NCBI GenBank assembly: GCA_964016885.1 | Contig: OZ024756.1 | Location: 12,338,001-12,402,000, forward strand | Direction: 5' to 3' | DNA: 64,000 nt | Source: Eledone cirrhosa | Lineage: Eukaryota | Shown here: positions 36,552 through 64,000 of the stretch, piece by piece | Position numbering within the stretch: position 1 is the first letter of the stretch | Layout: each line of letters starts with the position of its first letter | Program-made: the position numbers and the translations under genes | Notes under the pieces: model-generated | The model's database searches: none | Told to the model about the DNA's origin: nothing | The model's input: the letters and a program-made list of their open reading frames with translations, nothing else

Positions 36552-36668
36552 TTACTTGACAGATGGAGTGACAATGTGAAGTTGGTAAGGAACCCATTTA
36601 TTCTTCAGATGACAACTGTAAAGCCATTTCGGATGCACAAACGTCAGCTGCGGGTAGTTGGACAATGC
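36552..36668 (-). CDS. XRCC1: XRCC1 last coding exon
   Basis: ttcag|GCA TTG TCC ... GTC AAG TAA; ALSNYPQLTFVHPKWLYSCHLKNKWVPYQLHIVTPSVK*. Confidence 0.95.
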   Translation of the reverse strand, partial: ALSNYPQLTFVHPKWLYSCHLKNKWVPYQLHIVTPSVK

Positions 36669-39600: not shown

Positions 39601-42600
39601 AGTGTAGGTTGATGGTTGGTTTGCTAGGAGGGTTTAGATATATGAGTGTGATTTAACTTTTCTTTCAGTGTTGGTTAAATGAGGTTGAATATCGGAGTAG
39701 AGTTTATGTTGCTTGGGTTTACGGTTGACTTTGCTTTAACCCTTTAGCATTTAAACCAGCCATATCTGACCAGAATTCTCTCACCTCTTTCTGTTCAAAC
39801 TAACCATAACCAGCTGCTCATACTTATGTTAAGATATTGTTCTCAAAATAAATAATATCAAAATCTTGTAGGTTCGATATTATGTGAGATAATTATGTGA
39901 AATAAAGTGTTTTACAATGAAAATATACTAGTAAATATAGAGTAATGTAAATACTAGAAGGTTAATCTTAATGTATTTATGTTCAAGTTAAGGCAATTGA
40001 TGGTCATAGTTGCATATATACTCATGTATAAGTTACATCAACAGATAAGTCACCCTCCATTTTACAGAAAGACATTTATAATGTACCACATATTTTGAAC
40101 TGGGGTTTTGTATGTCAAGTAGAAAAGTTACCATTTTATATTCATTTATAATGTACCACTGTTTTCATAGCTTGGGCTCTGGCTGGGAATGGTGGATTAC
40201 AATTACTCCTGCGCACATGTTCCAAATGAATTTGTTGAGCAAATTACAAACGAGATCAAAATTCAGTGGATATCAATCTAAATCCTGATTATTATTATAT
40301 AGCGGTGGATTGGCAGTATTGGTAGAGGGTCGGACACCATGCTTTGACACAGAGTTACGGCCCTGGCCATTCTCAGTTCAAATCCCGCCGAGGTTGACTT
40401 TGCCTTTCATCCTTACGGGGGTCGATAAAATAAAGTACCAGTAATACACTGGGGTAATAGCTGGCCTTGTGCCAAAAGTAGAAACAGTTATTATATATTA
40501 TAAGGCGGTGGATTGGCAGTAACATTAAAGCATCGGACACCATGCTTCACAGCACAGGGTTATGGCCCTGTACATTCTGAGGTCAAATCCCGCCAAGGTT
40601 AGCTTTGCCTTTCATCCTTACGGGGTTGATAAAGTAAAGTACCAGTAATACACTGGGGTAATTATTATTATATATTATTATGCTTTGAAGCATAGAGTTA
40701 CGGCCCTTGCCATTCTGAGTTCAAATTCCGTCGAGGTTAACTTTGCCTTTCGTCTTTACAGGGTTGATAAAATAAAGTACCAGTAATGCACTGGGTATTT
40801 GCTGGCCTTGTGCCAAAAGTAGAAGCAATTTTATATTATTATTAAGGGCGGTGGATTGGCAGTATCGGTAGAGGGTCGGACACCATGCTTCACAGCATAG
40901 AGTTACGGCCCTTTCCATTCTGAGTTCAAATCCCGGCGAGGTTAACTTTGCCTTTCATCCTTACGGGGGTCGATAAAATAAAGTACCAGTAATACACTGG
41001 GGTAATTGCTGGCCTTGTGCCAAAAGTAGAAACAATTAATGCATGTGGAGAGATGCTGTGCTGAATAGGACCCGGCCAACCCTTGCAAGCTGGGAAAAGC
41101 GGACGGAAAATGATGATGTGGCAATCCAACATTTTTTAAATGCCACCACAGCCATATCAGTATGAAAATAACAGGTGATAATGATTACTACCACCAGCAC
41201 CACAACCACTACTACATCAGAGTCAATAAAGGAAGGTGTACTGACCTCATCAAAGTTGTCATCCCACTGTTCAGATGTTACAACAAAGTCCACTTTCCCA
41301 TTCATATAGTCTTCAAGTTCACTGAAAACAACAAAAAACAACATTAAGGCCTCTGTGATAATACTTCAACCCTAGTACCTTGTCCACCCTATCAGTTGCT
41401 AGTTTCAGGGTCACATTAACCCTAGTACCTTGTCCACCCTATCAGTTGCTAGTTTCAGGGTCACATTAACCCTAGTACCTTGTCCACCCTATCAGTTGCT
41501 AGTTTCAGGGTCACATTAACCCTAGTACCTTGTCCACCCTATCAGTTGCTAGTTTCAGGGTCACATTAACCCTAGTACCTGGTCCACTCTATCAGTTGCT
41601 AGTTTCAGGGTCACATTAACCCTAGTACCTTGTCCACTCTATCAGTTGCTAGTTTCAGGGTCACATTAACCCTAGTACCTTGTCCACCCTATCAGTTGCT
41701 AGTTTCAGGGTCACATTAACCCTAGTACCTTGTCCACCCTATCAGTTGCTAGTTTCAGGGTCACATTAACCCTAGTACCTTGTCCACCCTATCAGTTGCT
41801 AGTTTCAGGGTCACATTAACCCTAGTACCTGGTCCACTCTATCAGTTGCTAGTTTCAGGGTCACATTAACCCTAGTACCTTGTCCACTCTATCAGTTGCT
41901 AGTTTCAGGGTCACATTAACCCTAGTACCTTGTCCACTCTATCAGTTGCTAGTTTCAGGGTCACATTAACCCTAGTGCCTTGTCCACCCTATCAGTTGCT
42001 AGTTTCAGGGTCACATTAACCCTAGTACCTTGTCCACTCTATCAGTTGCTAGTTTCAGGGTCACATTAACCCTAGTACCTTGTCCACCCTATCAGTTGCT
42101 AGTTTCAGGGTCACATTAACCCTAGTACCTTGTCCATCCTATCAGTTGCTAGTTTCAGGGTCACATTAACCCTAGTACCTTGTCCATCCTATCAGTTGCT
42201 AGTTTCAGGGTCACATTAACCCTAGTACCTTGTCCACCCTATCAGTTGCTAGTTTCAGGGTCACATTAACCCTAGTACCTTGTCCATCCTATCAGTTGCT
42301 AGTTTCAGGGTCACATTAACCCTAGTACCTTGTCCATCCTATCAGTTGCTAGTTTCAGGGTCACATTAACCCTAGTACCTTGTCCATCCTATCAGTTGCT
42401 AGTTTCAGGGTCACATTAACCCTAGTACCTTGTCCATTCTATCAGTTGCTAGTTTCAGGGTCACATTAACCCTAGTACCTTGTCCACTCTATCAGTTGCT
42501 AGTTTCAGGGTCACATTAACCCTAGTACCTTGTCCATTCTATCAGTTGCTAGTTTCAGGGTCACATTAACCCTAGTACCTTGTCCATCCTATCAGTTGCT

Positions 42601-45600
42601 AGTTTCAGGGTCACATTAACCCTAGTGCCTTGTCCACTCTATCAGTTGCTAGTTTCAGGGTCACATTAACCCTAGTACCTTGTCCACTCTATCAGTTGCT
42701 AGTTTCAGGGTCACATTAACCCTAGTACCTTGTCCACTCTATCAGTTGCTAGTTTCAGGGTCACATTAACCCTAGTACCTTGTCCATTCTATCAGTTGCT
42801 AGTTTCAGGGTCACATTAACCCTAGTACCTTGTCCATTCTATCAGTTGCTAGTTTCAGGGTCACATTAACCCTAGTACCTTGTCCACCCTATCAGTTGCT
42901 AGTTTCAGGGTCACATTAACCCTAGTACCTTGTCCACCCTATCAGTTGCTAGTTTCAGGGTCACATTAACCCTAGTACCTTGTCCATTCTATCAGTTGCT
43001 AGTTTCAGGGTCACATTAACCCTAGTACCTTGTCCATCCTATCAGTTGCTAGTTTCAGGGTCACATTAACCCTAGTGCCTTGTCCACTCTATTAGTTGCT
43101 AGTTTCAGGGTCACATTAACCCTAGTACCTTGTCCACTCTATCAGTTGCTAGTTTCAGGGTCACATTAACCCTAGTACCTTGTCCACTCTATCAGTTGCT
43201 AGTTTCAGGGTCACATTAACCCTAGTGCCTTGTCCACTCTATCAGTTGCTAGTTTCAGGGTCACATTAACCCTAGTACCTTGTCCACTCTATCAGTTGCT
43301 AGTTTCAGGGTCACATTAACCCTAGTGCCTTGTCCACTCTATCAGTTGCTAGTTTCAGGGTCACATTAACCCTAGTACCTTGTCCACTCTATCAGTTGCT
43401 AGTTTCAGGGTCACATTAACCCTAGTACCTTGTCCACTCTATCAGTTGCTAGTTTCAGGGTCACATTAACCCTAGTACCTTGTCCATTCTATCAGTTGCT
43501 AGTTTCAGGGTCACATTAACCCTAGTACCTTGTTCATCCTATCAGTTGCTAGTTTCAGGGTCACATTAACCCTAGTACCTTGTCCACTCTATCAGTTGCT
43601 AGTTTCAGGGTCACATTAACCCTAGTACCTTGTCCACTCTATCAGTTGCTAGTTTCAGGGTCACATTAACCCTAGTACCTTGTCCACCCTATCAGTTGCT
43701 AGTTTCAGGGTCACATTAACCCTAGTACCTTGTCCATTCTATCAGTTGCTAGTTTCAGGGTCACATTAACCCTAGTACCTTGTCCACCCTATCAGTTGCT
43801 AGTTTCAGGGTCACATTAACCCTAGTACCTTGTCCACCCTATCAGTTGCTAGTTTCAGGGTCACATTAACCCTAGTACCTTGTCCATTCTATAAGTTGCT
43901 AGTTTCAGGGTCACATTAACCCTAGTACCTTGTCCATCCTATCAGTTGCTAGTTTCAGGGTCACATTAACCCTAGTGCCTTGTCCACTCTATTAGTTGCT
44001 AGTTTCAGGGTCACATTAACCCTAGTACCTTGTCCACTCTATCAGTTGCTAGTTTCAGGGTCACATTAACCCTAGTACCTTGTCCACTCTATCAGTTGCT
44101 AGTTTCAGGGTCACATTAACCCTAGTGCCTTGTCCACTCTATCAGTTGCTAGTTTCAGGGTCACATTAACCCTAGTACCTTGTCCACTCTATCAGTTGCT
44201 AGTTTCAGGGTCACATTAACCCTAGTGCCTTGTCCACTCTATCAGTTGCTAGTTTCAGGGTCACATTAACCCTAGTACCTTGTCCACTCTATCAGTTGCT
44301 AGTTTCAGGGTCACATTAACCCTAGTACCTTGTCCACTCTATCAGTTGCTAGTTTCAGGGTCACATTAACCCTAGTACCTTGTCCACTCTATCAGTTGCT
44401 AGTTTCAGGGTCACATTAACCCTAGTACCTTGTCCATTCTATCAGTTGCTAGTTTCAGGGTCACATTAACCCTAGTACCTTGTCCATCCTATCAGTTGCT
44501 AGTTTCAGGGTCACATTAACCCTAGTACCTTGTCCATTCTATCAGTTGCTAGTTTCAGGGTCACATTAACCCTAGTACCTTGTCCATTCTATCAGTTGCT
44601 AGTTTCAGGGTCACATTAACCCTAGTACCTTGTCCACTCTATTAGTTGCTAGTTTCAGGGTCACATTAACCCTAGTACCTTGTCCACTCTATCAGTTGCT
44701 AGTTTCAGGGTCACATTAACCCTAGTACCTTGTCCATTCTATCAGTTGCTAGTTTCAGGGTCACATTAACCCTAGTACCTTGTCCACTCTATCAGTTGCT
44801 AGTTTCAGGGTCACATTAACCCTAGTACCTTGTCCATTCTATCAGTTGCTAGTTTCAGGGTCACATTAACCCTAGTACCTTGTCCATTCTATCAGTTGCT
44901 AGTTTCAGGGTCACATTAACCCTAGAACCTTGTCCATTCTATCAGTTGCTAGTTTCAGGGTCACATTAACCCTAGTACCTTGTCCATCCTATCAGTTGCT
45001 AGTTTCAGGGTCACATTAACCCTAGTACCTTGTCCACCCTATCAGTTGCTAGTTTCAGGGTCACATTAACCCTAGTACCTTGTCCATCCTATCAGTTGCT
45101 AGTTTCAGGGTCACATTAACCCTAGTACCTTGTCCACCCTATCAGTTGCTAGTTTCAGGGTCACATTAACCCTAGTACCTGGTCCACTCTATCAGTTGCT
45201 AGTTTCAGGGTCACATTAACCCTAGTACCTTGTCCACTCTATCAGTTGCTAGTTTCAGGGTCACATTAACCCTAGTACCTTGTCCACTCTATCAGTTGCT
45301 AGTTTCAGGGTCACATTAACCCTAGTGCCTTGTCCACCCTATCAGTTGCTAGTTTCAGGGTCACATTAACCCTAGTACCTTGTCCACTCTATCAGTTGCT
45401 AGTTTCAGGGTCACATTAACCCTAGTACCTTGTCCACCCTATCAGTTGCTAGTTTCAGGGTCACATTAACCCTAGTACCTTGTCCATCCTATCAGTTGCT
45501 AGTTTCAGGGTCACATTAACCCTAGTACCTTGTCCATCCTATCAGTTGCTAGTTTCAGGGTCACATTAACCCTAGTACCTTGTCCACCCTATCAGTTGCT

Positions 45601-48600
45601 AGTTTCAGGGTCACATTAACCCTAGTACCTTGTCCATCCTATCAGTTGCTAGTTTCAGGGTCACATTAACCCTAGTACCTTGTCCATCCTATCAGTTGCT
45701 AGTTTCAGGGTCACATTAACCCTAGTACCTTGTCCATCCTATCAGTTGCTAGTTTCAGGGTCACATTAACCCTAGTACCTTGTCCATTCTATCAGTTGCT
45801 AGTTTCAGGGTCACATTAACCCTAGTACCTTGTCCACTCTATCAGTTGCTAGTTTCAGGGTCACATTAACCCTAGTACCTTGTCCATTCTATCAGTTGCT
45901 AGTTTCAGGGTCACATTAACCCTAGTACCTTGTCCATCCTATCAGTTGCTAGTTTCAGGGTCACATTAACCCTAGTGCCTTGTCCACTCTATCAGTTGCT
46001 AGTTTCAGGGTCACATTAACCCTAGTACCTTGTCCACTCTATCAGTTGCTAGTTTCAGGGTCACATTAACCCTAGTACCTTGTCCACTCTATCAGTTGCT
46101 AGTTTCAGGGTCACATTAACCCTAGTACCTTGTCCATTCTATCAGTTGCTAGTTTCAGGGTCACATTAACCCTAGTACCTTGTCCATTCTATCAGTTGCT
46201 AGTTTCAGGGTCACATTAACCCTAGTACCTTGTCCACCCTATCAGTTGCTAGTTTCAGGGTCACATTAACCCTAGTACCTTGTCCACCCTATCAGTTGCT
46301 AGTTTCAGGGTCACATTAACCCTAGTACCTTGTCCATTCTATCAGTTGCTAGTTTCAGGGTCACATTAACCCTAGTACCTTGTCCATCCTATCAGTTGCT
46401 AGTTTCAGGGTCACATTAACCCTAGTGCCTTGTCCACTCTATTAGTTGCTAGTTTCAGGGTCACATTAACCCTAGTACCTTGTCCACTCTATCAGTTGCT
46501 AGTTTCAGGGTCACATTAACCCTAGTACCTTGTCCACTCTATCAGTTGCTAGTTTCAGGGTCACATTAACCCTAGTGCCTTGTCCACTCTATCAGTTGCT
46601 AGTTTCAGGGTCACATTAACCCTAGTACCTTGTCCACTCTATCAGTTGCTAGTTTCAGGGTCACATTAACCCTAGTGCCTTGTCCACTCTATCAGTTGCT
46701 AGTTTCAGGGTCACATTAACCCTAGTACCTTGTCCACTCTATCAGTTGCTAGTTTCAGGGTCACATTAACCCTAGTACCTTGTCCACTCTATCAGTTGCT
46801 AGTTTCAGGGTCACATTAACCCTAGTACCTTGTCCATTCTATCAGTTGCTAGTTTCAGGGTCACATTAACCCTAGTACCTTGTTCATCCTATCAGTTGCT
46901 AGTTTCAGGGTCACATTAACCCTAGTACCTTGTCCACTCTATCAGTTGCTAGTTTCAGGGTCACATTAACCCTAGTACCTTGTCCACTCTATCAGTTGCT
47001 AGTTTCAGGGTCACATTAACCCTAGTACCTTGTCCACCCTATCAGTTGCTAGTTTCAGGGTCACATTAACCCTAGTACCTTGTCCATTCTATCAGTTGCT
47101 AGTTTCAGGGTCACATTAACCCTAGTACCTTGTCCACCCTATCAGTTGCTAGTTTCAGGGTCACATTAACCCTAGTACCTTGTCCACCCTATCAGTTGCT
47201 AGTTTCAGGGTCACATTAACCCTAGTACCTTGTCCATTCTATAAGTTGCTAGTTTCAGGGTCACATTAACCCTAGTACCTTGTCCATCCTATCAGTTGCT
47301 AGTTTCAGGGTCACATTAACCCTAGTGCCTTGTCCACTCTATTAGTTGCTAGTTTCAGGGTCACATTAACCCTAGTACCTTGTCCACTCTATCAGTTGCT
47401 AGTTTCAGGGTCACATTAACCCTAGTACCTTGTCCACTCTATCAGTTGCTAGTTTCAGGGTCACATTAACCCTAGTGCCTTGTCCACTCTATCAGTTGCT
47501 AGTTTCAGGGTCACATTAACCCTAGTACCTTGTCCACTCTATCAGTTGCTAGTTTCAGGGTCACATTAACCCTAGTGCCTTGTCCACTCTATCAGTTGCT
47601 AGTTTCAGGGTCACATTAACCCTAGTACCTTGTCCACTCTATCAGTTGCTAGTTTCAGGGTCACATTAACCCTAGTACCTTGTCCACTCTATCAGTTGCT
47701 AGTTTCAGGGTCACATTAACCCTAGTACCTTGTCCACTCTATCAGTTGCTAGTTTCAGGGTCACATTAACCCTAGTACCTTGTCCATTCTATCAGTTGCT
47801 AGTTTCAGGGTCACATTAACCCTAGTACCTTGTCCATCCTATCAGTTGCTAGTTTCAGGGTCACATTAACCCTAGTACCTTGTCCATTCTATCAGTTGCT
47901 AGTTTCAGGGTCACATTAACCCTAGTACCTTGTCCATTCTATCAGTTGCTAGTTTCAGGGTCACATTAACCCTAGTACCTTGTCCACTCTATTAGTTGCT
48001 AGTTTCAGGGTCACATTAACCCTAGTACCTTGTCCACTCTATCAGTTGCTAGTTTCAGGGTCACATTAACCCTAGTACCTTGTCCATTCTATCAGTTGCT
48101 AGTTTCAGGGTCACATTAACCCTAGTACCTTGTCCACTCTATCAGTTGCTAGTTTCAGGGTCACATTAACCCTAGTACCTTGTCCATTCTATCAGTTGCT
48201 AGTTTCAGGGTCACATTAACCCTAGTACCTTGTCCATTCTATCAGTTGCTAGTTTCAGGGTCACATTAACCCTAGAACCTTGTCCATTCTATCAGTTGCT
48301 AGTTTCAGGGTCACATTAACCCTAGTACCTTGTCCATCCTATCAGTTGCTAGTTTCAGGGTCACATTAACCCTAGTACCTTGTCCACCCTATCAGTTGCT
48401 AGTTTCAGGGTCACATTAACCCTAGTACCTTGTCCATCCTATCAGTTGCTAGTTTCAGGGTCACATTAACCCTAGTACCTTGTCCACTCTATCAGTTGCT
48501 AGTTTCAGGGTCACATTAACCCTAGTACCTTGTCCACTCTATCAGTTGCTAGTTTCAGGGTCACATTAACCCTAGTACCTTGTCCACCCTATCAGTTGCT

Positions 48601-51423
48601 AGTTTCAGGGTCACATTAACCCTAGTACCTTGTCCACTCTATCAGTTGCTAGTTTCAGGGTCACATTAACCCTAGTACCTTGTCCATTCTATCAGTTGCT
48701 AGTTTCAGGGTCACATTAACTCTAGTACCTTGTCCATTCTATCAGTTGCTAGTTTCAGGGTCACATTAACCCTAGTACCTGGTCCATTCTATCAGTTGCT
48801 AGTTTCAGGGTCACATTAACCCTAGTACCTGGTCCATTCTATCAGTTGCTAGTTTCAGGGTCACATCAACCCTAGTACCTTGTCCACTCTATCAGTTGCT
48901 AGTTTCAGGGTCACATTAACCCTAGTACCTTGTCCACCCTATCAGTTGCTAGTTTCAGGGTCACATTAACCCTAGTACCTTGTCCATCCTATCAGTTGCT
49001 AGTTTCAGGGTCACATTAACCCTAGTACCTTGTCCATCCTATCAGTTGCTAGTTTCAGGGTCACATTAACCCTAGTACCTTGTCCACCCTATCAGTTGCT
49101 AGTTTCAGGGTCACATTAACCCTAGTGCCTTGTCCACTCTATCAGTTGCTAGTTTCAGGGTCACATTAACCCTAGTACCTTGTCCATCCTATCAGTTGCT
49201 AGTTTCAGGGTCACATTAACCCTAGTACCTTGTCCACCCTATCAGTTGCTAGTTTCAGGGTCACATTAACCCTAGTACCTTGTCCACCCTATCAGTTGCT
49301 AGTTTCAGGGTCACATTAACCCTAGTACCTTGTCCACTCTATCAGTTGCTAGTTTCAGGGTCACATTAACCCTAGTACCTTGTCCACTCTATCAGTTGCT
49401 AGTTTCAGGGTCACATTAACCCTAGTACCTTGTCCACCCTATCAGTTGCTAGTTTCAGGGTCACATTAACCCTAGTACCTTGTCCACTCTATCAGTTGCT
49501 AGTTTAAGGGTCACATTAACCCTAGTACCTTGTCCATTCTATCAGTTGCTAGTTTCAGGGTCACATTAACTCTAGTACCTTGTCCATTCTATCAGTTGCT
49601 AGTTTCAGGGTCACATTAACCCTAGTACCTGGGCCATTCTATCAGTTGCTAGTTTCAGGGTCACATTAACCCTAGTACCTGGTCCATTCTATCAGTTGCT
49701 AGTTTCAGGGTCACATCAACCCTAGTACCTTGTCCACTCTATCAGTTGCTAGTTTCAGGGTCACATTAACCCTAGTACCTTGTCCACCCTATCAGTTGCT
49801 AGTTTCAGGGTCACATTAACCCTAGTACCTTGTCCATCCTATCAGTTGCTAGTTTTAGGGTCACATTAACCCTAGTACCTTGTCCATCCTATCAGTTGCT
49901 AGTTTCAGGGTCACATTAACCCTAGTACCTTGTCCACCCTATCAGTTGCTAGTTTCAGGGTCACATTAACCCTAGTTCCTTGTCCACTCTATCAGTTGCT
50001 AGTTTCAGGGTCACATTAACCCTAGTACCTTGTCCATCCTATCAGTTGCTAGTTTCAGGGTCACATTAACCCTAGTACCTTGTCCACCCTATCAGTTGCT
50101 AGTTTCAGGGTCACATTAACCCTAGTACCTTGTCCACCCTATCAGTTGCTAGTTTCAGGGTCACATTAACCCTAGTACCTTGTCCATTCTATCAGTTGCT
50201 AGTTTCAGGGTCACATTAACCCTAGTACCTTGTCCACTCTATCAGTTGCTAGTTTCAGGGTCACATTAACCCTAGTACCTTGTCCACTCTATCAGTTGCT
50301 AGTTTCAGGGTCACATTAACCCTAGTACCTTGTCCACCCTATCAGTTGCTAGTTTCAGGGTCACATTAACCCTAGTACCTTGTCCACTCTATCAGTTGCT
50401 AGTTTCAGGGTCACATTAACCCTAGTACCTGGTCCACTCTATCAGTTGCTAGTTTCAGGGTCACATTAACCCTAGTACCTTGTCCACTCTATCAGTTGCT
50501 AGTTTCAGGGTCACATTAACCCTAGTACCTGGTCCACTCTATCAGTTGCTAGTTTCAGGGTCACATTAACCCTAGTACCTGGTCCACTCTATCAGTTGCT
50601 AGTTTCAGGGTCACATTAACCCTAGTACCTTGTCCATCCTATCAGTTGCTAGTTTCAGGGTCACATTAACCCTAGTACCTTGTCCATCCTATCAGTTGCT
50701 AGTTTCAGGGTCACATTAACCCTAGTACCTTGTCCACTCTATCAGTTGCTAGTTTCAGGGTCACATTAACCCTAGTACCTTGTCCACTCTATTAGTTGCT
50801 AGTTTTACGGTGATGATAAGAAGCACCCAGTCCACACTGTAATGAGGGTAGAACTAGGAAGGGCAACCAGCCATAGAAACCAATCCAGAAACAATTTCAT
50901 ATGAGCAAGACACAGTCCCCAGAATCTGATTTGTCTCACAATATGACAACCCGTCTAAGCTATGCAAATGTGGAAAAATTGACATATGATGATGATGATG
51001 ATATATACATCATCATCATCATCATCATTTTATGTCCGCTTTTCCCTGCTTGCAAGGGAGGGACAGGAACTGATATATATATGTGTATATATATATAATT
51101 TGATTTTAGGTTTAATCAATACATATAAAATATGATATCATCATCATCATCACCGTTTTACGTCTGTTCTTCCATGCTAGCATGAGTTAGACGGGTTGTC
51201 CTGTTATGGGCAGTGTACGGTTGGCTGACCTCGTCTTGCTCATACGGGAACTGATTCTGGCTTGATTTCTACAGCTGGATGCCCTTCCTAACACCAACCT
51301 CATTTACAGTGAGTGCTGGGTGCACCATAAGTTGCACAATGCATATGCAAGTGATAAGTGCACCTAGGTATTGTTTAGCAGTGGAACGGGAGATCCTTTC
51401 TTCTGAACTAAACAACACACACA

Positions 51424-51960: not shown

Positions 51961-54900
51961 TCATCATCATTTTACGTCCGCTTTTCCCTGCTTGCAAGGG
52001 TGGGACGGGAACTGATTCTGGCTTGATTTCTACAGCTGGATGCCCTTCCTAACACCAACCTCATTTACAGTGAGTGCTGGGTGCTTTTTTTGCCGTGGCA
52101 CCTCCATGACCACTTTGCAGTGGAATGATATGGACCCCAGTCCCTATCATCTCATTTCTACAGCTGAGTAAACTGGAGCAATGTGAAATAAAGTGTCTTG
52201 CTCAAGGAAACAACACATCACCCGGTCTGAGAATTTTTATATAATAATATATATATATAAAAATTAGGATTGGTGCTCTGAAATAGCGATGTATACATGA
52301 ATGTATGTATAGTATATTTGGCAATATGCCGTATGTTTAATTAAAAACATTTAGAAGACCTTGCGCTATTATTTTTAAAGTAGTGACTATGTCACTTACT
52401 TCTTTTGTCTGCAAAGGAAGGGAGAGAAGCTGACACACTGTAATGTGGCCATGTTGGTGTCACGACAAAAAGCACCCAGTACACACTGTAATGTAGTCAT
52501 GTAGATTATCAATATATTGTGTAATACCTTCGACAGGTGTGTTTCCAATATAGTCTTAGGTCAGAAGATCCTAACCTTTGTGTGGCTGAGGTAAAGTGAC
52601 TGTCTGAAATCCAGGAAAAAGAGTAAATGAGTAAGTAAGTAGTGTAGAGTCATTAACTCACCCATTATATGCAATGATGTATCGAATTAGCTCGTGTCGC
52701 TCTATTTCATTGAAGTTTCCATAGAGAAAGAAGTGTTTATCCGACAGGAAGTTTGGCAGGACAGGTAACTCTGATTCGGAGGAATCACTATCGCTGTTTT
52801 CATCAACATCTGTGGCAGCACCAAAAGCCTCATCATCATGCCCTTTATCTTTGTCATCATCATCATCATCATCATCATTGTCCACACTACTGTCAATTTG
52901 CTGGGTGTCTGCTGTGCGAAGGAGTTTAGATGTCGATGGACCAGCATCAGATAAAACGGACAATTCTGACCGTTTTTTCCCTGCAGTTTTGATTCTATAA
53001 AATAAACATTAAAAAAAGGTCAATTTCTTTTTAACCCTTTACCATTTACATTACTCTATATTTACTATTGTATTTTCATGGTAAAGTCTTTACCTCACAT
53101 AGCATTTACATTACTCTATATATACTATTGTATTTCCACAGTAAAGGTTTTACCTCACATAATACCTCACATAGCATTTACATTACTCTATATATACTAT
53201 TGTATTTCCACAGTAAAGGTTTTACCTCACATAATATCTCACATAACATTTACATTACTCTATATATACTATTGTATTTCCACAGTAAAGGTTTTACCTC
53301 ACATAATATCTCACATAACATTTACATTACTCTATATATACTATTGTATTTCCACAGTAAAGGTTTTACCTCACATAATATCTCACATAACATTTACATT
53401 ACTCTATATATACTATTGTATTTCCACAGTAAAGGTTTTACCTCACATAATATCTTACATAATATTTACATTACTCTATATATACTATTGTATTTCCACA
53501 GTAAAGGTTTTACCTCACATAATATCTCACATAACATTTACATTACTCTATATATACTATTGTATTTTCACAGTAAAGGTTTTACCTCACATAATATCTT
53601 ACATAATATTTACATTACTCTATATATACTATTGTATTTTCACAGTAAAGGCTTTACCTCACATAATATCTCACATAACATTTACATTACTCTATATATA
53701 CTATTGTATTTTCACAGTAAAGGCTTTACCTCACATAATATCTTACATAATATTTACATTACTCTATATATACTATTGTATTTTCACAGTAAAGGCTTTA
53801 CCTCACATAATATTTACATTACTCTATATTTACTATTGTATTTTCACACATATATATGTCATCATAATAAATACACACACATACACATATATATATGTCA
53901 TCATCATAGTAAATACACACACACACACAAATATGTTATCATAATAAATACACACACACATATATATGTCGTCATCATAATAAATACACACACACAAACA
54001 TATATATGTCATCCTCATAGTAAATACACACACACATGTCATCATAATAAATACACACACATATGTCATCATCATAAATACACACACACACACACATATA
54101 TCATCATAACACACACACACACATCATCATAACACACACACATATATATCATCATCATAACACACACACACACATATCATCATAACACACACACGCACAT
54201 ATATCATCAAAACACACACACACACACACACATCAAAACACACACACACACACACACCATCATCATCATATACATACACACACACACATATCATCATAAC
54301 ACACACACATTTATATCATCATAACACACACACACACACATATATATCATCATAACACACACACACATATATCATCATAACACACACACACACATCATCA
54401 TAACACACACACATATATATCATCATCATAACACACACACACACATATCATCATAACACACACACGCACATATATCATCAAAACACACACACACACACAC
54501 ATCAAAACACACACACACACACACCATCATCATCATATACATACACACACACACATATATCATCATAACACACACACATTTATATCATCATAACACACAC
54601 ACACACACATATATATCATCATAACACACACACACATATATCATCATCATCATAATCACCATTTAATGTCAATTTTTCCAAGCTAGCATGGCTTGGACGA
54701 GTTGTCCTATTATGAGCGAAATCAGATCAGACAACAAAGAAACACACAGTTCACACAGTAATGTGGCCGTGTGGGTAACACGGTAAAAACCTCCCAGTCC
54801 ACGCTGTAATGTGGCCGTGTATGTAACACTGTAAAAACCTCCCAGTCCACACAGTAATGTGGCCCTGTGGGTAACACGGTAAAAAGTTCCCAGTCCACGC

Positions 54901-57900
54901 TGTAATGTGGCAGTGTGGGTAACACGGTAAAAACCTCCCAGTCCATACTGTAATGTGGCTGTGTATGTAACACGGTAAAAACCTCCCAGTCCACGCTGTA
55001 ATGTGGCCGTGTATGTAACACGGTAAAAAGTTCCCAGTCCACGCTGTAATGTGGCCGTGTGGGTAACACGGTAAAAACCTCCCAGTCCACACTGTAATGT
55101 GGCCGTGTAGGTAACATGGTAAAAACCTCCCAGTCCACACTGTAATGTGGCCGTGTAGGTAACACGGTAAAAACCTCCCAGTCCACACTGTAATGTGGCC
55201 GTGTAGGTAACACGATAAAAACCTCCCAGTCCACACTGTAATGTGGCCGTGTAGGTAACACGGTAAAGATCTCCCAGTCGACACTGTAATGTGGCTGTAT
55301 ATGTAACACGGTAAAAACCTCGCAGTCCACACTGTAATGTGGTCGTGTATGTAACACGGTAAAAACCTCCCAGTCCACGCTGTAATGTGGCCGTGTAGGT
55401 AACACGGTAAAAACCTCACAGTCCACACTGTAATGTGGCCGTGTAGGTAACACGGTAAAGATCTCCCAGTCCACACTGTAATGTGGCTGTGTATGTAACA
55501 CGGTAAAAACCTCCCAGTCGACACTGTTATGTGGCCGTGTGGGTAACACGGTAAAAAGTTCCCAGTCCACACAGTAATGTGGCCGTGTGGGTAACACGGT
55601 AAAAAGTTCCCAGTCCACACAGTAATGTGGCCATGTGGGTAACACGGTAAAAAGTTCCCAATCCACACAGTAATGTGGCCGTGTGGGTAACACGGTAAAA
55701 ACATCCCAGTCCACACAGTAATGTGGCCCTGTGGGTAACACGGTAAAAAGTTCCCAGTCCACACAGTAATGTGGCCCTGTGGGTAACACGGTAAAAAGTT
55801 CCCAGTCTACACTGTAATGTGGCCCTGTGGGTAACACGGTAAAGAGTTCCCAGTCCACACAGTAATGTGGCCCTGTGGGTAACACGGTAAAGAGTTCCCA
55901 GTCCACACAGTAATGTGGCCGTGTGGGTAACACGGTAAAAAGTTCCCAGTCCACACTGTAATGTGGCCGTGTGGGTAACACGGTAAAAACCTCCCAGTCC
56001 ACACAGTAATGTGGTCGTGTATGTAACACGGTAAAAACCTCCCAGTCCACACTGTAATGTGGCTGTGTGGGTAACACGGTAAAAACCTCCCAGTCCACGC
56101 TGTAATGTGGCCGTGTGGGTAACACGGTAAAAACCTCCCAGTCCATACTGTAATGTGGCCGTGCGGGTAACACGGTAAAAACCTCCCAGTCCACACTGTA
56201 ATGTGGCTGTGTATGTAACACGGTAAAAACCTCCCAGTCCACGCTGTAATGTGGCCGTGTATGTAACACGGTAAAAAGTTCCCAGTCCACGCTGTAATGT
56301 GGCCGTGTGGGTAACACGGTAAAAACCTCCCAGTCCACACTGTAATGTGGCTGTGTATGTAACACGGTAAAAACCTCGCAGTCCACACTGTAATGTGGCC
56401 GTGTATGTAACACGGTAAAAACCTCCCAGTCCACGCTGTAATGTGGCCGTGTAGGTAACACGGTAAAAACCTCACAGTCCACACTGTAATGTGGCCGTGT
56501 AGGTAACACGGTAAAGATCTCCCAGTCCACACTGTAATGTGGCTGTGTATGTAACACGGTAAAAACCTCCCAGTCGACACTGTTATGTGGCCGTGTGGGT
56601 AACACGGTAAAAGGTTCCCAGTCCACACAGTAATGTGGCCGTGTGGGTAACATGGTAAAAAGTTCCCAGTCCACACAGTAATGTGGCCGTGTGGGTAACA
56701 CGGTAAAAAGTTCCCAGTCCACACAGTAATGTGGCCGTGTGGGTAACACGGTAAAAACATCCCAGTCCACACAGTAATGTGGCCCTGTGGGTAACACGGT
56801 AAAAAGTTCCCAGTCCACACAGTAATGTGGCCCTGTGGGTAACATGGTAAAAAGTTCCCAGTCCACACTGTAATGTGGCCCTGTGGGTAACACGGTAAAG
56901 AGTTCCCAGTCCACACAGTAATGTGGCCCTGTGGGTAACACGGTAAAGAGTTCCCAGTCCACACAGTAATGTGGCCGTGTGGGTAACACGGTAAAAAGTT
57001 CCCAGTCCACACTGTAATGTGGCCGTGTGGGTAACACGGTAAAAACCTCCCAGTCCACACAGTAATGTGGTCGTGTATGTAACACGGTAAAAACCTCCCA
57101 GTCCACACTGTAATGTGGCTGTGTGGGTAACATGGTAAAAACCTCCCAGTCCACGCTGTAATGTGGCCGTGTGGGTAACACGGTAAAAACCTCCCAGTCC
57201 ATACTGTAATGTGGCCGTGCGGGTAACACGGTAAAAACCTCCCAGTCCACACTGTAATGTGGCTGTGTATGTAACACGGTAAAAACCTCCCAGTCCACGC
57301 TGTAATGTGGCCGTGTATGTAACACGGTAAAAAGTTCCCAGTCCACGCTGTAATGTGGCCGTGTGGGTAACACGGTAAAAACCTCCCAGTCCACACTGTA
57401 ATGTGGCCGTGTAGGTAACATGGTAAAAACCTCCCAGTCCACACTGTAATGTGGCCGTGTAGGTAACACGGTAAAAACCTCCCAGTCCACAGTGTAATGT
57501 GGCCGTGTAGGTAACACAATAAAAACCTCCCAGTCCACACTGTAATGTGGCCGTGTAGGTAACACGGTAAAGATCTCCCAGTCCACACTGTAATGTGGCT
57601 GTGTATGTAACACGGTAAAAACCTCGCAGTCCACACTGTAATGTGGCCGTGTATGTAACACGGTAAAAACCTCCCAGTCCACGCTGTAATGTGGCCGTGT
57701 AGGTAACACGGTAAAAACCTCACAGTCCACACTGTAATGTGGCCGTGTAGGTAACACGGTAAAGATCTCCCAGTCCACACTGTAATGTGGCTGTGTATGT
57801 AACACGGTAAAAACCTCCCAGTCGACACTGTTATGTGGCCGTGTGGGTAACACGGTAAAAAGTTCCCAGTCCACACAGTAATGTGGCCGTGTGGGTAACA

Positions 57901-58758
57901 CGGTAAAAAGTTTCCAGTCCACACAGTAATGTGGCCGTGTGGGTAACACGGTAAAAACATCCCAGTCCACACAGTAATGTGGCCGTGTGGGTAACACGGT
58001 AAAAAGTTCCCAGTCCACACAGTAATGTGGCCCTGTGGGTAACACGGTAAAAAGTTCCCAGTCCACACAGTAATGTGGCCCTGTGGGTAACACGGTAAAG
58101 AGTTCCCAGTCCACACAGTAATGTAGCCGTGTGGGTAACACGGTAAAAAGTTCCCAGTCCACACTGTAATGTGGCCGTGTGGGTAACACGGTAAAAACCT
58201 CCCAGTCCACGCTGTAATGTGGCTGTGTGGGTAACACGGTAAAAACCTCCCAGTCCACACTGTAATGTGGCCATGTAGGTAACACGGTAAAAACCTCCCA
58301 GTCCACACTGTAATGTGGCCGTATAGGTAACACGGTAAAGATCTCCCAGTCCACACTGTAATGTGGCCGTGTGGGTAACACGGTAAAAACCTCCCAGTCC
58401 ACACAGTAATGTGGCCGTGTAGGTAACACAGTAAAAAGTTCCCAGTCAACGCTGTAATGTGGCCGTGTGGGTAACACGGTAAAAACCTCCCAGTCCACAC
58501 TGTAATGTGGCTGTGTGGGTAACACGGTAAAAACCTCCCAGTCCACGCTGTAATGAGGCCGTGCAGGTAACACTGTAAAAAGTTCCCAGTCAACACTGTA
58601 AACGTGGTTGGTGTTAGGAAGGGCATCCAGCCGTAGAAAACCTGCCAGATAGTCCTATATGAGCGAGACATGGTCACCCAACCAACCTTGCCTCAAGTGG
58701 GACAACGCCCGTCTAACCCATGCTAGCGTGGAAGATAGACGGTAACCGATGATGATGA

Positions 58759-58789
<31 letters not shown>

Positions 58790-61434
58790 ATGATGATGGA
58801 TCAGGTTATGAAAGTGGCAGAAAGGATATTAGCACAACTAATTAGAGAAAGGATCAAACTAGATGAGATGCAGTTTGGTTTTGTGCCTGGGAAGAGTACA
58901 ACAGATGCCCTCTTCTTGGTGAGACAATTGCAAGAGAGGTTCTTAGAGAAAAATAAGCCACTATACTTAGCCTTTGTTGACCTAGAGAAGGCCTTTGATA
59001 GGGTACCCCGATCTGTCATGTGGTGGTCTCTAAGGAAGCTAGGTGTTGAGGAATGGCTTGTAAGGACAATGCAAACTTTGTACAGAGGTTCTCTCAGTAA
59101 AGTCAGGGTAGGAATGGAGTTTAGTGAGGAATTCCAGATACAAGTAGGAGTACATCAAGGTTCGGTCCTCAGCCCGCTCTTGTTCATTATAGTCCTCCAA
59201 GCCATAACAGAGGAGTTTAAGACTGGCTGTCCATGGGAACTTCTCTATGCTGACGATCTGGCTCTTATAGCAGAATCAGTAAAGGAGCTAGAGAATAATT
59301 TCTGGCTTCCTCTGCTGACGACGAAGGGTTTTTCCCTGCGTACGAAAGGCCGGTTGTACGATGCCTGTGTGAGGAGCGCGATGCTGCATGGTAGTGAGAC
59401 ATGGGCAGCAACTGCAGAGGATATGCTAGAGAGAAATGAGGCAAGCATGAATGTGTTGAGAGAGAAACTGTATCTGAGAGGGATAGAATGTAGTGTACGG
59501 GAGAGGAGACTGAGATGGTATGGACATGTGATGCGCATGGAGGATGACCGATGGGTGAAGAAGTGCCATGAAATGCCAGTTGAAGGAAGACGTGGTAGAG
59601 GTAGAGCACGAAAAACATGGACGGAGGTGGTGAGAACAGACCTCAGATCGTTGAGGCTCACGGTGGAGATGACGAAGGACCGTGACAAGTGGAGAGATGC
59701 TGTGCTGAATAAGACCCGTCCCACCCTTGCGAGCAGGGAAGAGCGGACGTAAAATGATGATGACCATGTCTTGCTCAACACAACTACTTTTGTTGGCGTC
59801 AGTATGTCCTTCCAACCACATCTAGTGTGGACTGTGTGGCTTACTATACAGCATCCAGCCCACCCCCTTCCCCACCACCATCAGTTACCTTCTCACTTCA
59901 TCGTCAGTGTCTTCTTCAGAAAGTCTAACATCTCCTTCTTCATCAGATTCTGGCTCTGAAATGAAATGAAAATGAAATGAAAAAGAAATGTTAATGAAAT
60001 GTTACAGCTCACACTTATGTAGGTTTAGCTAGCCTCATATGAGGTTTCTTGGCTGTTTTAGCCCTTTACCATTTACATTACTCTTTATATACTATTGTAT
60101 TTTCATGGTAAAGGCTTTACCTCACATAATATTGAATCTACGAGATTTTGATATTATCTATTTTGAGAACAATACCTTAACATAAGTATGAGCAGCCGGT
60201 TACAGCCTGTTTGGACAGAAAACGATAAGAGAATTCTGGCCATATATGGCTGATTTAAATGTTAAAGGAAGGATTAATGACAGAGGACCAAGTTCCCTCA
60301 TGTTGTTTATACAGCTCACACCAATGTAGGTTTAGCTGGCCTCCTACAAAGTATCTCATAGGAGGTTTCTTGGTTGTTTTAATGATAGGAGCCTGGTCCT
60401 ATCATGTTGTTTATACAGCTCACACCAATGTAGGTTTAGCTGGCCTCCTACAAAGTATCTCATAGGAGGTTTCTTGGATGTTTTAATGATAGGAGCCTGG
60501 TCCTATCATGTTGTTTATACAGCTCACACCTATGTAGGTATAGCTGGCCTCATATAAGGTTTCTTGGGCATTTTAATAATATGTCTCAGTCCTATAATGT
60601 TGTATCTCAGATTTCTTGGATGTTTTAAAGATAGGGAGCCCAGTCCTGTCATGAAAAATGTGAAATGAAGCACTCACATGACCTCACCACCTCCCACTCA
60701 CATGGCCTCACCACCTCCCACTCACACGACCTCACCACCTCCCACTCACACGACCTCACCACCTCCCACTCACTCACATGACCTCACCACCTCCCACTCA
60801 CATGGCCTCACCACCTCCCACTCACACGACCTCACCACCTCCCACTCACTCACATGACCTCACCACCTCCCACTCACATGGCCTCACCACCTCCCACTCA
60901 CACGACCTCACCACCTCCTATTCACACTCACATTCACAAAATGTTACCATGTCCTACTCACACTCACATTCACAAAATGTTACCATGTCCTACTCACACT
61001 CACAAGACCTCACCACCTCCTGCTCACACTCACATTCACAAAATGTTACCATGTCCCACTCTCACTCACAAGACCATCTTCACTCACCCTCCATGGATGG
61101 CAAGTATTCAGGATCACTTTTCCTCTTCAGCAACCGCAGCTCTTCTGAATGTCCCTTCTTCTTCTCCTCCTCCTCCAATGGCTGTGTCTGGTCTTCCTCC
61201 TCCCCCTCCTCTATTGGCTGTGTCTGGTCTTCCTCCTCCCCCTCCTCTATTGGCTGTGTCTGGTCTTCCTCCTCCCCCTCCTCTATTGGCTGTGTCTGGT
61301 CTCCCTCATCTTCCTCCTCCACTGGCTGTGTTTGCTGCTCCTCTTTTTTCTTCTTTTTCACACGCTCTTTGCCTTTCTTCTCATCATCATCATCATCATC
61401 ATCCTCATCCATTGGTTTCTCCTCCAGTTGATAT
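36552..61434 (-). CDS. XRCC1: DNA repair protein XRCC1, 3' part (5 exons; 5' exons beyond the right edge)
   Basis: Exons 61434-61088, 59955-59889, 52994-52662, 41321-41246, 36668-36552 join in frame via GT-AG. They encode 'EEDTDDEVRR' (cf. XRCC1 GDTEDELRR) and BRCT2 'ELPVLPNFLSDKHFFLYGNFNEIERHELIRYIIAYNG-ELEDYMNGKVDFVVTSEQWDDNFDE-ALSNYPQLTFVHPKWLYSCHLKNKWVPYQLHIVTP'. Confidence 0.95.
36760..37880 (+). mobile_element. RTE LINE 3' half (decayed) with C4HC3 finger and (GAT)n tail
   Basis: GIHQGLVLSPLLF, CPWELLY, RLRWYGHV, TRPTLASREKRT*. Confidence 0.9.
38010..39436. repeat. 45-bp minisatellite (about 32 copies)
   Basis: Unit translates as MLKDVLEDDTGRPAT; intronic. Confidence 0.95.
39740..39961. 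mobile_element. piggyBac-type MITE copy
   Basis: TTAA TSD; same body as 5160-5445. Confidence 0.78.
40300..41037 (+). mobile_element. Head-to-tail cluster of about 4 SINE family B copies
   Basis: GGCGGTGGATTGGCAGTA heads near 40300, 40504 and 40847; B boxes; ATT tails. Confidence 0.82.
41246..41321 (-). CDS. XRCC1: XRCC1 BRCT2 exon
   Basis: ttcag|T GAA CTT GAA GAC TAT ATG ... GAT GAG|gtcagt; 76 nt. Confidence 0.95.
41368..50805. repeat. 50-bp minisatellite, about 9.4 kb and about 189 copies
   Basis: Unit cctagtaccttgtccaYYctatcagttgctagtttcagggtcacattaac. Confidence 0.98.
51619..51683 (-). ncRNA. Mirror copy of the hammerhead ribozyme motif
   Basis: Exact reverse complement of 51813-51877 in the left arm of the palindrome. 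Confidence 0.75.
51813..51877 (+). ncRNA. Minimal type I hammerhead ribozyme motif (Penelope-pLTR-like)
   Basis: Stem I tattttat/atgaaata; CTGATGA; stem II aagggcacca/tggtgtcctt; GAAA; near-palindromic stem III tatgta; predicted AUA cleavage after 51869; AATAAA at 51874. Confidence 0.75.
51958..52234 (-). mobile_element. SINE family A, 5'-truncated
   Basis: Matches the other copies; lacks the A box. Confidence 0.85.
52662..52994 (-). CDS. XRCC1: XRCC1 exon: CK2/FHA-binding linker and start of BRCT2
   Basis: tag|A ATC AAA ... AAT GG|gtgagt; FGAATDVDENSDSD and ELPVLPNFLSDKHFFLYG. Confidence 0.95.
53035..53848. repeat. About 69-bp tandem array from the subterminal part of the TTAA MITE
   Basis: Begins ttaa|ccctttaccatttac; the same unit is amplified at 17540-17883. 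Confidence 0.9.
54742..58600. repeat. 48-bp minisatellite (about 80 copies) inside a retroelement 3' segment
   Basis: Unit cacactgtaatgtggccgtgtgggtaacacggtaaaaacctcccagtc; followed by the LINE/SINE tail to about 58760. Confidence 0.96.
58797..59763 (+). mobile_element. RTE LINE fragment with internal deletions
   Basis: RT motifs with YADD; lacks the finger region; (GAT)n tail. Confidence 0.92.
59889..59955 (-). CDS. XRCC1: XRCC1 exon (EPESDEEGDVRLSEEDTDDEVRR)
   Basis: tttcag|AG CCA ... AGA AG|gtaact; 67 nt; conserved DT[DE]DE.RR motif. Confidence 0.9.
60298..60605. repeat. About 103-bp tandem repeat, about 3 copies
   Basis: tcatgttgtttatacagctcacacc...gtccta. Confidence 0.85.
60672..61086. 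repeat. 24-bp cactcacatgacctcaccacctcc repeats
   Basis: Directly after an XRCC1 donor site. Confidence 0.88.
61088..61434 (-). CDS. XRCC1: XRCC1 exon: end of BRCT1 plus acidic linker with QTQP repeats
   Basis: cag|A TAT CAA CTG ... ATG GAG G|gtgagt; 347 nt; phase matches the next exon. Confidence 0.85.
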
Positions 61435-62019: not shown

Positions 62020-63245
62020 CGAGGTGTGTCAGAAAAGTTCCAGGACTGATGTCACAAAAGATTTATTTCAAACCCAAACTTCACACTAAGAGTTTTCTCA
62101 TTCAAAGTAATCCCCCTGGAGTATGTAACTGTAATCTTAGCTCTCTGCAGCGATCAAACTTTTTTCTTCATAATTTTATATATAAATGGAGGCACATGGC
62201 TTAGTGGTTAGGGCATTGTGCTTGCAATCGAAAGGTTGTGAGTTCAATTCTCAGACCGGGTGATGTGTTGTTTCCTTGAGCAAGACACTTTATTTACTCA
62301 GCTGTAGAAATGAGATGATAGAGACTGGGGTCCATATCATTCCACTACAAAGTGGTCGTGAAGGCGCCATGGCAAAAAAGCACCCAGCACTCACTGTAAA
62401 TGAGGTTGGTGTTAGGAAGGGCATCCAGCTGTAGAAATCAAGCCAGAATCAGTTCCCGTCCCACCCTTGCAAGCAGGGAAAAAGCGGGCGTAAAATGAAA
62501 TGATGATGATGATGATGTCCTCTGTTTCAGGTCGTCAAGCAATGAGCACAGAGCAACGAACAAACTTGAAAACTCCATCAGAAGCACTGGGATTGCTGCA
62601 GCAAGTGTATGGAGATGAGACGATGTCACGCTCACGTGTTTTTGAGTGGTGCAAGAGGTTTAAAGAAGGACGCGAGGACGTGGAAGATCACCCCAGGAGC
62701 AGAAGGCCCTCAACAACCAGGACTGAGGTCAACGTTGAGCGCGTCAGGCAGATGGTGCGTAGCAATCGTCGGCTGACTGTTCAACTGATGGCAAATGAGC
62801 TGGGCATGAATCGGGACAGCGTCTGGAAGATTCTCACTGAAGATTTGGACATGCGGAAAGTCTGCACGAAGATGGTGCCCAAACTGCTGAACGATGACCA
62901 GAAGGGTCGACGCATGCAGGTGTGCCAGGACATCCTCGAGCGTCTTGAAACCGAACCAGAGTTGCTAGGGACAGTCATCACTGGTGATGAAAATGGATCT
63001 TCAAGTACGACCCGAAGGGGACCCGTTTTGAAGACGTGGACGACATCAAAAAGGCCGTGACGACGGAATTGCGGAGGATCCCGGAAGAATCCTTCCAGGA
63101 GTGCATGCAAGCGTGGCAGAAAAGGATGGAAAAGTGCATTAGACTCCAGGGGGATTACTTTGTAGGAGAAAACTCTTAGTGTGAAGTTTGGGTTTGAAAT
63201 AAATCTTTTGTGGCATCAGTCCTGGAACTTTTCTGACACACCTCG
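62020..63245 (+). mobile_element. Mariner element with 103-bp inverted termini, deleted catalytic core and nested SINE
   Basis: TA-flanked; QVYGDETMSRSRVFEWCKRFKEGRE, KMVPKLL, ITGDE then jumps to KGTRFEDVDDIK...KCIRLQGDYF. Confidence 0.9.
62188..62517 (+). mobile_element. SINE family A copy nested in a mariner element
   Basis: Matches the other copies. Confidence 0.88.
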
Positions 63246-63502: not shown

Positions 63503-64000
63503 TCATCATCATCATCATTTTACGTCCGCTTTTCCCTGCTTGCAAGGGTGGGACGGGTCTTATTCAGCACAGCATCTCTCCACTCGTCACGGTCCTTCGT
63601 CATCTCCACCGTGAGCTTCAATGATCTGAGGTCTGTTCTCACCACCTCCGCCCATGTTTTTCGTGGTCTACCTCTACCACGTCTTCCTTCAACTGGCATT
63701 TCCTGGCACTTCTTCACCCATCGGTCATCCTCCATGCGCATCACATGTCCATACCACCTCAGTCTCCTCTCCCGTACACTACATTCTATCCCTCTCAGAC
63801 ACAGTTTCTCTCTCAACACATTTATGCTGGGTCGTTCACGCACATTTATACTGCACATCCAACGGAGCATGCTTGCCTCATTTCTCTCCAGCCGTCGCAT
63901 ATCCTCTGCAGTTGCTGCCCATGTCTCACTACCATGCAGCATCGCGCTCCTCACACAGGCATCGTACAACCGGCCTTTCGTACGCAGGGAGAAACCCTTC
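63503..64000 (-). mobile_element. RTE LINE 3' end (young-looking; runs off the right edge)
   Basis: Uninterrupted ORF end MLHGSETW...GRPRKTW...TRPTLASREKRT* plus (GAT)n. Confidence 0.92.

Follow-up and report, generated by a model that had tools for sequence, protein, structure and literature searches.

An acidic TQx(I/V/L) motif in octopod XRCC1, multiplied within a coding minisatellite in Eledone cirrhosa

A 64,000-nucleotide stretch of the Eledone cirrhosa genome (assembly GCA_964016885.1, contig OZ024756.1, positions 12,338,001 to 12,402,000; hereafter the window) carries on its minus strand the 3′ half of octopod XRCC1, in five exons with canonical splice sites and one open frame. One of these predicted exons holds a 36-bp coding minisatellite with five acidic TQP motifs, located in the linker between the two BRCT domains (BRCT1 and BRCT2). 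Comparison with 89 homologues suggests that the motif, and not the repeat, is the feature shared among octopods. To judge from these sequences, the octopod TQxI site is probably functional and has probably been multiplied neutrally.

Results

The gene assignment, which an earlier note had made from the letters alone, was borne out. In the PDB, the exon C stretch matched XRCC1 chains only (4/4, best E 1e-8), and it also matched two Octopus XRCC1 clusters; a PDB search with exon A gave no match below E 0.99, and Pfam searches with single exons gave no meaningful match. Four exons were placed by tblastn with octopod proteins and the fifth by reading the sequence by eye, and exon use was judged from splice signals together with orthologue alignment. 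Exons A to E, all on the minus strand, have AG/GT ends and matching phases, giving a 312-residue open frame up to the stop codon. Exon A (61088–61434, 347 nt) encodes the end of BRCT1 (YQL), an Asp run, a basic patch, the TQP array and KSDPEYLPSME; its acceptor has 13/15 pyrimidines followed by CAG, its donor reads AGG/GTGAGT in a phase compatible with exon B, and both of its ends can be aligned to Octopus XRCC1, with KSDPEYLPSME at the far one. Exon B (59889–59955) carries a conserved acidic EEDTDDEVR (Thr motif at 59911–59900), and exon C (52662–52994) a sixth TQxI site, a CK2-type site and the start of BRCT2. The middle of BRCT2 is encoded by exon D (41246–41321, 84–88% identity to octopod XRCC1), and its end with the stop codon by exon E, the last coding exon (36552–36668, 76–92% identity).

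The array had been placed just after BRCT1, and exon A does open with YQL, which is the BRCT1 end in O. sinensis (Pfam BRCT 346–418; a weaker model runs to 432); BRCT1 itself, however, lies with the N-terminal domain beyond position 64000, YQL being its only part inside the window. Across BRCT2, the window protein is 86–87% identical to Octopus, 81% to Argonauta and 73–74% to decapodiforms. A 12-row tree put it among the octopods, with the branching order of the window, Argonauta and Octopus not settled. The CK2/FHA site before BRCT2 is retained as FGAATDVDE in the window (TDVD core at 52802–52813, minus strand), O. bimaculoides and Argonauta, and as FDAATDVDE in O. sinensis and O. vulgaris; the octopod form has Ala where the vertebrate YxxSTDE has its Ser at −1. 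The Asp runs of the linker (61381–61409 and 52854–52878) are encoded by the GAT/ATC microsatellite that also abounds in the introns, and their lengths vary between Octopus species. A basic patch, KERVKKKKK (61370–61344, minus strand), directly precedes the array, and KKK and KRK follow it; these basic segments may possibly serve in nuclear localisation or charge pairing.

The array itself occupies 61343–61176 of the minus strand and translates as EEQQTQPV-EEEDEGDQTQPI-(EEGEEEDQTQPI)x2-EEGEEEDQTQPL, that is, 56 residues with 26 Asp or Glu and no Lys or Arg. Its translation and its five TQP[V/I/I/I/L] motifs at 36-nt spacing had been described correctly, as had its location, although the ends quoted (61177 and 61345) were 1–2 nt off. 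The Thr codons start at 61331, 61295, 61259, 61223 and 61187 (spacing 36, 36, 36 and 36 nt), the first being residue 35 counted from the Tyr of YQL. Tandem Repeats Finder (TRF) reported the repeat at 61157–61331, with a period of 36, 4.9 copies, 92% matches and a score of 273. Units 3 and 4 are identical across 36 nt, unit 5 matches over 33 nt and differs in its last codon, unit 2 shows four base differences, and in unit 1 the last eight codons alone can be aligned. With a head-to-tail unit, a period divisible by 3 and a position within an open exon, it is a coding minisatellite; no further occurrence of the 36-bp unit was found within the window.

The first motif, EEQQTQPV (61320–61343, minus strand), is the likely orthologue of a single EEQ[Q/H]TQVI in Octopus, O. 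sinensis and O. vulgaris having the same EEQQTQ. MAFFT, however, aligned the single Octopus site to the fifth array copy and not to the first, so the original copy is not fixed. The sixth site, (AD)TQQI(D), lies outside the repeat in exon C (52895–52906, minus strand); with the motif set beforehand, the chance of TQx[IVL] in the shuffled 127-residue linker after the array was P=0.012. The residue at +3 is aliphatic in 6/6 linker TQ dipeptides of the window XRCC1 (V, I, I, I, L and I in order), in agreement with the earlier description.

To see these sites among relatives, a set of 89 homologues was used, comprising 87 from the best 120 of 986 XRCC1 matches plus two cluster members, with 29 entries without names and 4 near-duplicates left out. 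In the BRCT1–BRCT2 linker, TQx[I/V/L] was present in 4/4 octopods (0.09 expected from shuffles) and in 2/85 of the others (2.0 expected), the latter made up of decapodiforms (0/3), other molluscs (1/33), other invertebrates (0/21) and vertebrates (1/28). Since the array was found in 0/89 of these homologues, conservation appears to concern the motif and not the array. O. sinensis, O. vulgaris and O. bimaculoides each have the single EEQ[Q/H]TQVI in the orthologous linker exon, within which the repeat lies in frame. The TQ is thus kept in relatives, as one copy in each of these three species; the expansion, thought to have added the motif, instead multiplied one that Octopus orthologues already carry, and the Pro of TQP is not conserved, its place at +2 being taken by Val in Octopus.

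Argonauta has no TQx[IVL] at site 1, and carries ADTQEI in its exon C equivalent. At this second site the forms are ADTQQI (window), ADTQEI (Argonauta), ADTLEI (Octopus) and STLPL or STIPL (decapodiforms), so that, in a region of poor conservation, the T and an I or L at +3 persist in 8/8 coleoid rows. The pattern is thus complementary: Octopus has TQ at site 1 and TLEI at site 2, Argonauta has site 2 only and the window has both, so that the 4/4 octopod proteins have the motif through two different sites. A search for further octopod linkers with O. sinensis residues 405–545 found none among 5390 short candidates (0/5390; lengths 30–385).

We have also considered whether the octopod TQxI compensates for a lost PIKK site. 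DNA-PK acts on S371 in BRCT1 of vertebrate XRCC1 (PMC5524842). An SQ matching S371 is present in 24/28 vertebrates, 0/3 octopods and 0/33 other molluscs. Compensation was rejected, since the other molluscs also have no S371-type SQ.

Biology of the repeat itself points to slippage. Tandem arrays found by TRF make up 47.5% of the window, which contains 34 merged minisatellites; 21 of these have at least 3 copies, and in 12/21, the XRCC1 array included, the period is divisible by 3. The XRCC1 introns hold minisatellites of 50 bp x 189 (41368–50805), 48 bp x 80 (54747–58601), 45 bp x 32 (38014–39436) and 72 bp x 10 (53094–53813), and some of these arrays contain repeat-only open frames of 500–1300 codons that are probably non-coding. 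If 12 codons were duplicated at random, the complete motif would be included in 14% of cases within the orthologous exon and in 5.5% within the whole linker. Of the variable columns among array units 2–5, 0/6 lie within TQP codons (P=0.15); with unit 1 included the figure is 0/10 (P=0.033). Anchoring of the units on the motif biases this last value, and synonymous positions are likewise unchanged. The +3 codon occurs in three forms (GTG, ATA and TTG), all aliphatic, which speaks for constraint. No good sign of selection on the array copies or on copy number was found among these measures, and the array has probably expanded by ordinary repeat slippage and is likely tolerated rather than selected.

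In searches with the repeat, the ESM Atlas returned no usable match, and phmmer against 1.84 billion representatives gave 30 matches, of which 20/30 had their names looked up and 11 sequences were inspected for TQ content (nine that were matches or their cluster mates in named references, an isoform duplicate, and an entry bearing a gene id alone). MDC1 or XRCC1 accounted for 0/20 named matches, and the top crustacean matches are compositional, because they have no TQxΦ arrays, FHA or BRCT; a view of the top matches as invertebrate MDC1 was rejected. Look-alike 12-residue arrays exist in proteins without an evident repair role. O. bimaculoides LOC106880041 (P0137) contains at residues ~310–395 an acidic 12-residue tandem repeat, EEESVSDNTKPV, in ~7 copies; this uncharacterised protein without a Pfam match has a TKPVEEE core and no Gln. 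A Peromyscus KH domain-containing protein 3 (P0160) also owes a TQ array to tandem repetition; it has 11 TQ sites, many of them spaced by 12 residues, and the residue at +3 is Ser or Ala.

Among described TQ systems, a close fit is with the N-terminal M-E-D-pT-Q-A-I (Thr4) of MDC1. This PIKK site is recognised by the FHA domain of MDC1, which dimerises; the conserved Ile of the motif sits in the +3 pocket, and pT-X-X-I is called favoured by certain FHA classes (PMC3351161). The window motifs are similar in having acidic residues before the Thr, Gln at +1 and Ile at +3, and both ADTQQI of the window and ADTQEI of Argonauta fit the D-T-Q-x-I of Thr4, whereas the Thr4 site is single and N-terminal, is bound by the FHA domain of MDC1 itself and has a conserved Trp after it (PMC3351161). 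Any reader of TQxI in XRCC1 must act in trans, because XRCC1 has no FHA domain. The FHA domain of CHK2 also prefers pTxxI.

RNF8 favours Tyr or Phe at +3 (PMC4037201), and Pellino 1/2 favour Phe or Tyr there, their best MDC1 ligand being EDSEpTQPFD, around pT765 (PMC11884936). This ligand resembles EEEDQTQPIE of the window, Pro at +2 included, and the MDC1 TQxF cluster likewise groups acidic TQ motifs within a repair scaffold; it differs in having Phe at +3 (aromatic in 0/6 window sites) and in forming no regular tandem array (PMC11884936). RNF8 or Pellino as the reader is disfavoured, since both prefer F/Y at +3 and the window sites are aliphatic. The MDC1-like docking proposed earlier thus survives as a likeness to the Thr4 pTQAI, and not to the RNF8-docking TQxF.

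The plant protein BCP4 has 3–10 TQxΦ motifs depending on the species, their role being given as unknown, and the forward primer for its TQ fragment encodes EETQPI (PMC11014961). The hydrophobic +3, the species-variable copy number and the EETQPI that opens the cloned fragment are points of likeness to the window; unlike XRCC1, BCP4 is a tandem-BRCT γH2A.X reader whose repeats occur widely among flowering plants, and in an unphosphorylated assay they showed no NBS1 binding (PMC11014961). As a sequence pattern, the octopod TQxI fits MDC1 Thr4 and the BCP4 TQxΦ better than the TQxF ligands of RNF8 and Pellino.

In the vertebrate XRCC1 linker, CK2 sites of the form YxxSTDE bind the FHA domains of PNKP, aprataxin and APLF (PMC4655838), and the window linker is similar in keeping a CK2-type site as FGAATDVDE, with EEDTDDE upstream. 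The TQP threonines of the window differ from those sites in having no acid at +3. By the familiar consensus for CK2, one of the kinase rules used here along with those for CK1 and PLK1, they are for this reason not CK2 sites. The array does reach the S/T-Q cluster threshold of at least three in 50 residues, with five TQ in 50 (PMC3564818). However, chance alone can also satisfy that definition (in yeast, 147 expected and 436 found), and the source takes sharing among orthologues as its main support (PMC3564818), whereas the window cluster comes from one DNA repeat and is unshared. The Octopus and Argonauta linkers reach 2 S/T-Q in 50 residues, and the highest count among the 89 homologous linkers is 3.

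The open-access literature yielded nothing on XRCC1 in octopus or cephalopods, the mollusc and BRCT papers found being unrelated, and nothing on this motif in work on XRCC1 with FHA/TQXF or linker evolution, as seen in titles and abstract starts. XRCC1, the TQxΦ motif and coding minisatellites are each known; their combination appears undescribed in the open-access literature searched.

Elsewhere in the window, an apparent second gene lies downstream of XRCC1 on the same strand (15384–24479, minus), with coiled-coil-like exon candidates at ~24168–24479, 20936–21169, 18400–18738, 15832–16170 and 15384–15671 that gave weak Pfam matches only. Between these candidates, a 33-bp x 70 array (21872–24125) is open over ~800 codons in several frames and is probably intronic. 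A broken mariner/Mos1-type transposase (62494–63179, plus strand; HTH_48 and HTH_32 matches) sits in the intron that precedes exon A, with flanks resembling inverted ends near 62020–62100 and 63170–63245. Fragments of a retrotransposon family with reverse transcriptase occur at 58739–59752 (plus strand; RVT_1, E 2e-21), and further ones at 3–2143, 36749–37864 and 63520–64000, several of them inside XRCC1 introns.

Discussion

The reading that we tentatively prefer, with somewhat less than even confidence, is that the TQx(V/I/L) threonine is a PIKK target, that an FHA domain of the pTxxI type reads it, and that slippage gave rise to the copies without clear selection. After damage, an ATM/ATR/DNA-PK-type kinase would phosphorylate the TQxI Thr of octopod XRCC1 in a presumably disordered and accessible linker, and a pTxxI-preferring FHA protein (MDC1 as the first candidate, CHK2 as the second) would bind the phosphothreonine in trans, creating a damage-inducible docking site beside the CK2 sites. 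Slippage would have made site 1 fivefold in this lineage, and the six sites could then raise avidity as a side effect.

Several observations weigh against a functional motif. The octopod sample amounts to three lineages and two sites, with P0003 and P0005 almost identical, so that the 4/4 are not four independent trials. TQx[IVL] is missing from 3/3 decapodiform linkers and from 32/33 other molluscs and is therefore not a general feature of XRCC1; each of the two TQxI sites has been lost in one lineage, and an SQ near site 1 in Octopus (YSQQ) is HSEE in the window. A looser TxxΦ, without the Gln, showed no enrichment among the other molluscs, the other invertebrates or the vertebrates. A Branchiostoma protein for which weak matches to hAT and DUF7869 are the only ones has 13 TQAV, mostly 12 residues apart, and the function of the comparison motifs in plant BCP4 is itself given as unknown (PMC11014961).

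Close behind the preferred reading, though somewhat doubtful in our estimate, comes a wholly neutral history, in which a TQxI arose by chance in an octopod ancestor and was later caught in a minisatellite, the linker needing only to be long, acidic and flexible. The high repeat density of the window agrees with it, as do the Asp/Glu runs that vary in length even among Octopus species and the unrelated acidic 12-residue repeat of LOC106880041 with its TKPVEEE core and no Gln; the unchanged TQP codons in units 2–5 are unremarkable (P=0.15), their synonymous positions being unchanged as well, and since 8/89 homologues reach three S/TQ in 50 residues somewhere in the protein, the S/T-Q cluster definition is a weak one. 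Harder to reconcile with pure chance are the occurrence of TQxI at two distinct places of a single linker (P about 0.012 for the second), the Thr and aliphatic +3 kept at site 2 in 8/8 coleoid rows, and the retention of at least one full TQx[IVL] site in every octopod examined. At the other extreme, the expansion itself may have been selected, octopods having linked XRCC1, a scaffold for single-strand breaks, to ATM-type signalling through TQxI docking sites of the second linker, and the minisatellite having turned one site, much as the earlier note proposed, into a five-valent, possibly length-variable platform with 12-residue spacing, switched by PIKK and tethering XRCC1 to dimeric FHA proteins of the MDC1/CHK2 type at damaged chromatin. 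The +3 codon that varies (GTG, ATA, TTG) while staying aliphatic, with the other changes in the acidic spacer, would suit this, and so would the absence of variable columns from the TQP codons of all five units, the dimeric MDC1 FHA domain and the species-variable copy number of BCP4. We nevertheless regard it as unlikely: the P=0.033 is biased by the anchoring, a neutral origin is quantitatively plausible, and with the array in 0/89 homologues one motif copy suffices in close relatives. If it did hold, slippage would have connected single-strand repair to double-strand-break signalling in a tunable way.

All of these accounts take the array to be part of the protein, and its inclusion in the XRCC1 mRNA is likely from the splice signals. 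It could instead be skipped through a weak in-frame donor, AGC/GTGTGA (61358–61366, minus strand; GT at 61363), which lies just upstream of the array in the phase of the true donor, or the copy number could be an assembly error; no transcript or protein of this species was among the matches found. Yet the cryptic donor has 5/9 consensus matches, against 7–8 for the four real donors and 8/9 for the true exon A donor, and its use would also delete KSDPEYLPSME, which is present in Octopus proteins. Exon A is 76% purine, and its best internal acceptor has at most 6/15 pyrimidines, compared with 13 at the real one. The array units moreover differ in graded fashion, and skipping or artefact is in our view very improbable.

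In the papers cited here, the recruitment of FHA proteins by XRCC1 runs through CK2 sites, and the PIKK site described is S371 in BRCT1. If the preferred reading is correct, the octopod TQxI would be an additional, damage-switched docking route for XRCC1. The species form a natural allele series, with one site in Octopus and Argonauta and six in Eledone cirrhosa, that is suited to tests of motif valency and of the capacity of slippage to build signalling clusters. If instead a neutral motif is what these species carry, a caution follows: coding minisatellites in the repeat-saturated genomes of cephalopods can mimic textbook S/T-Q clusters.

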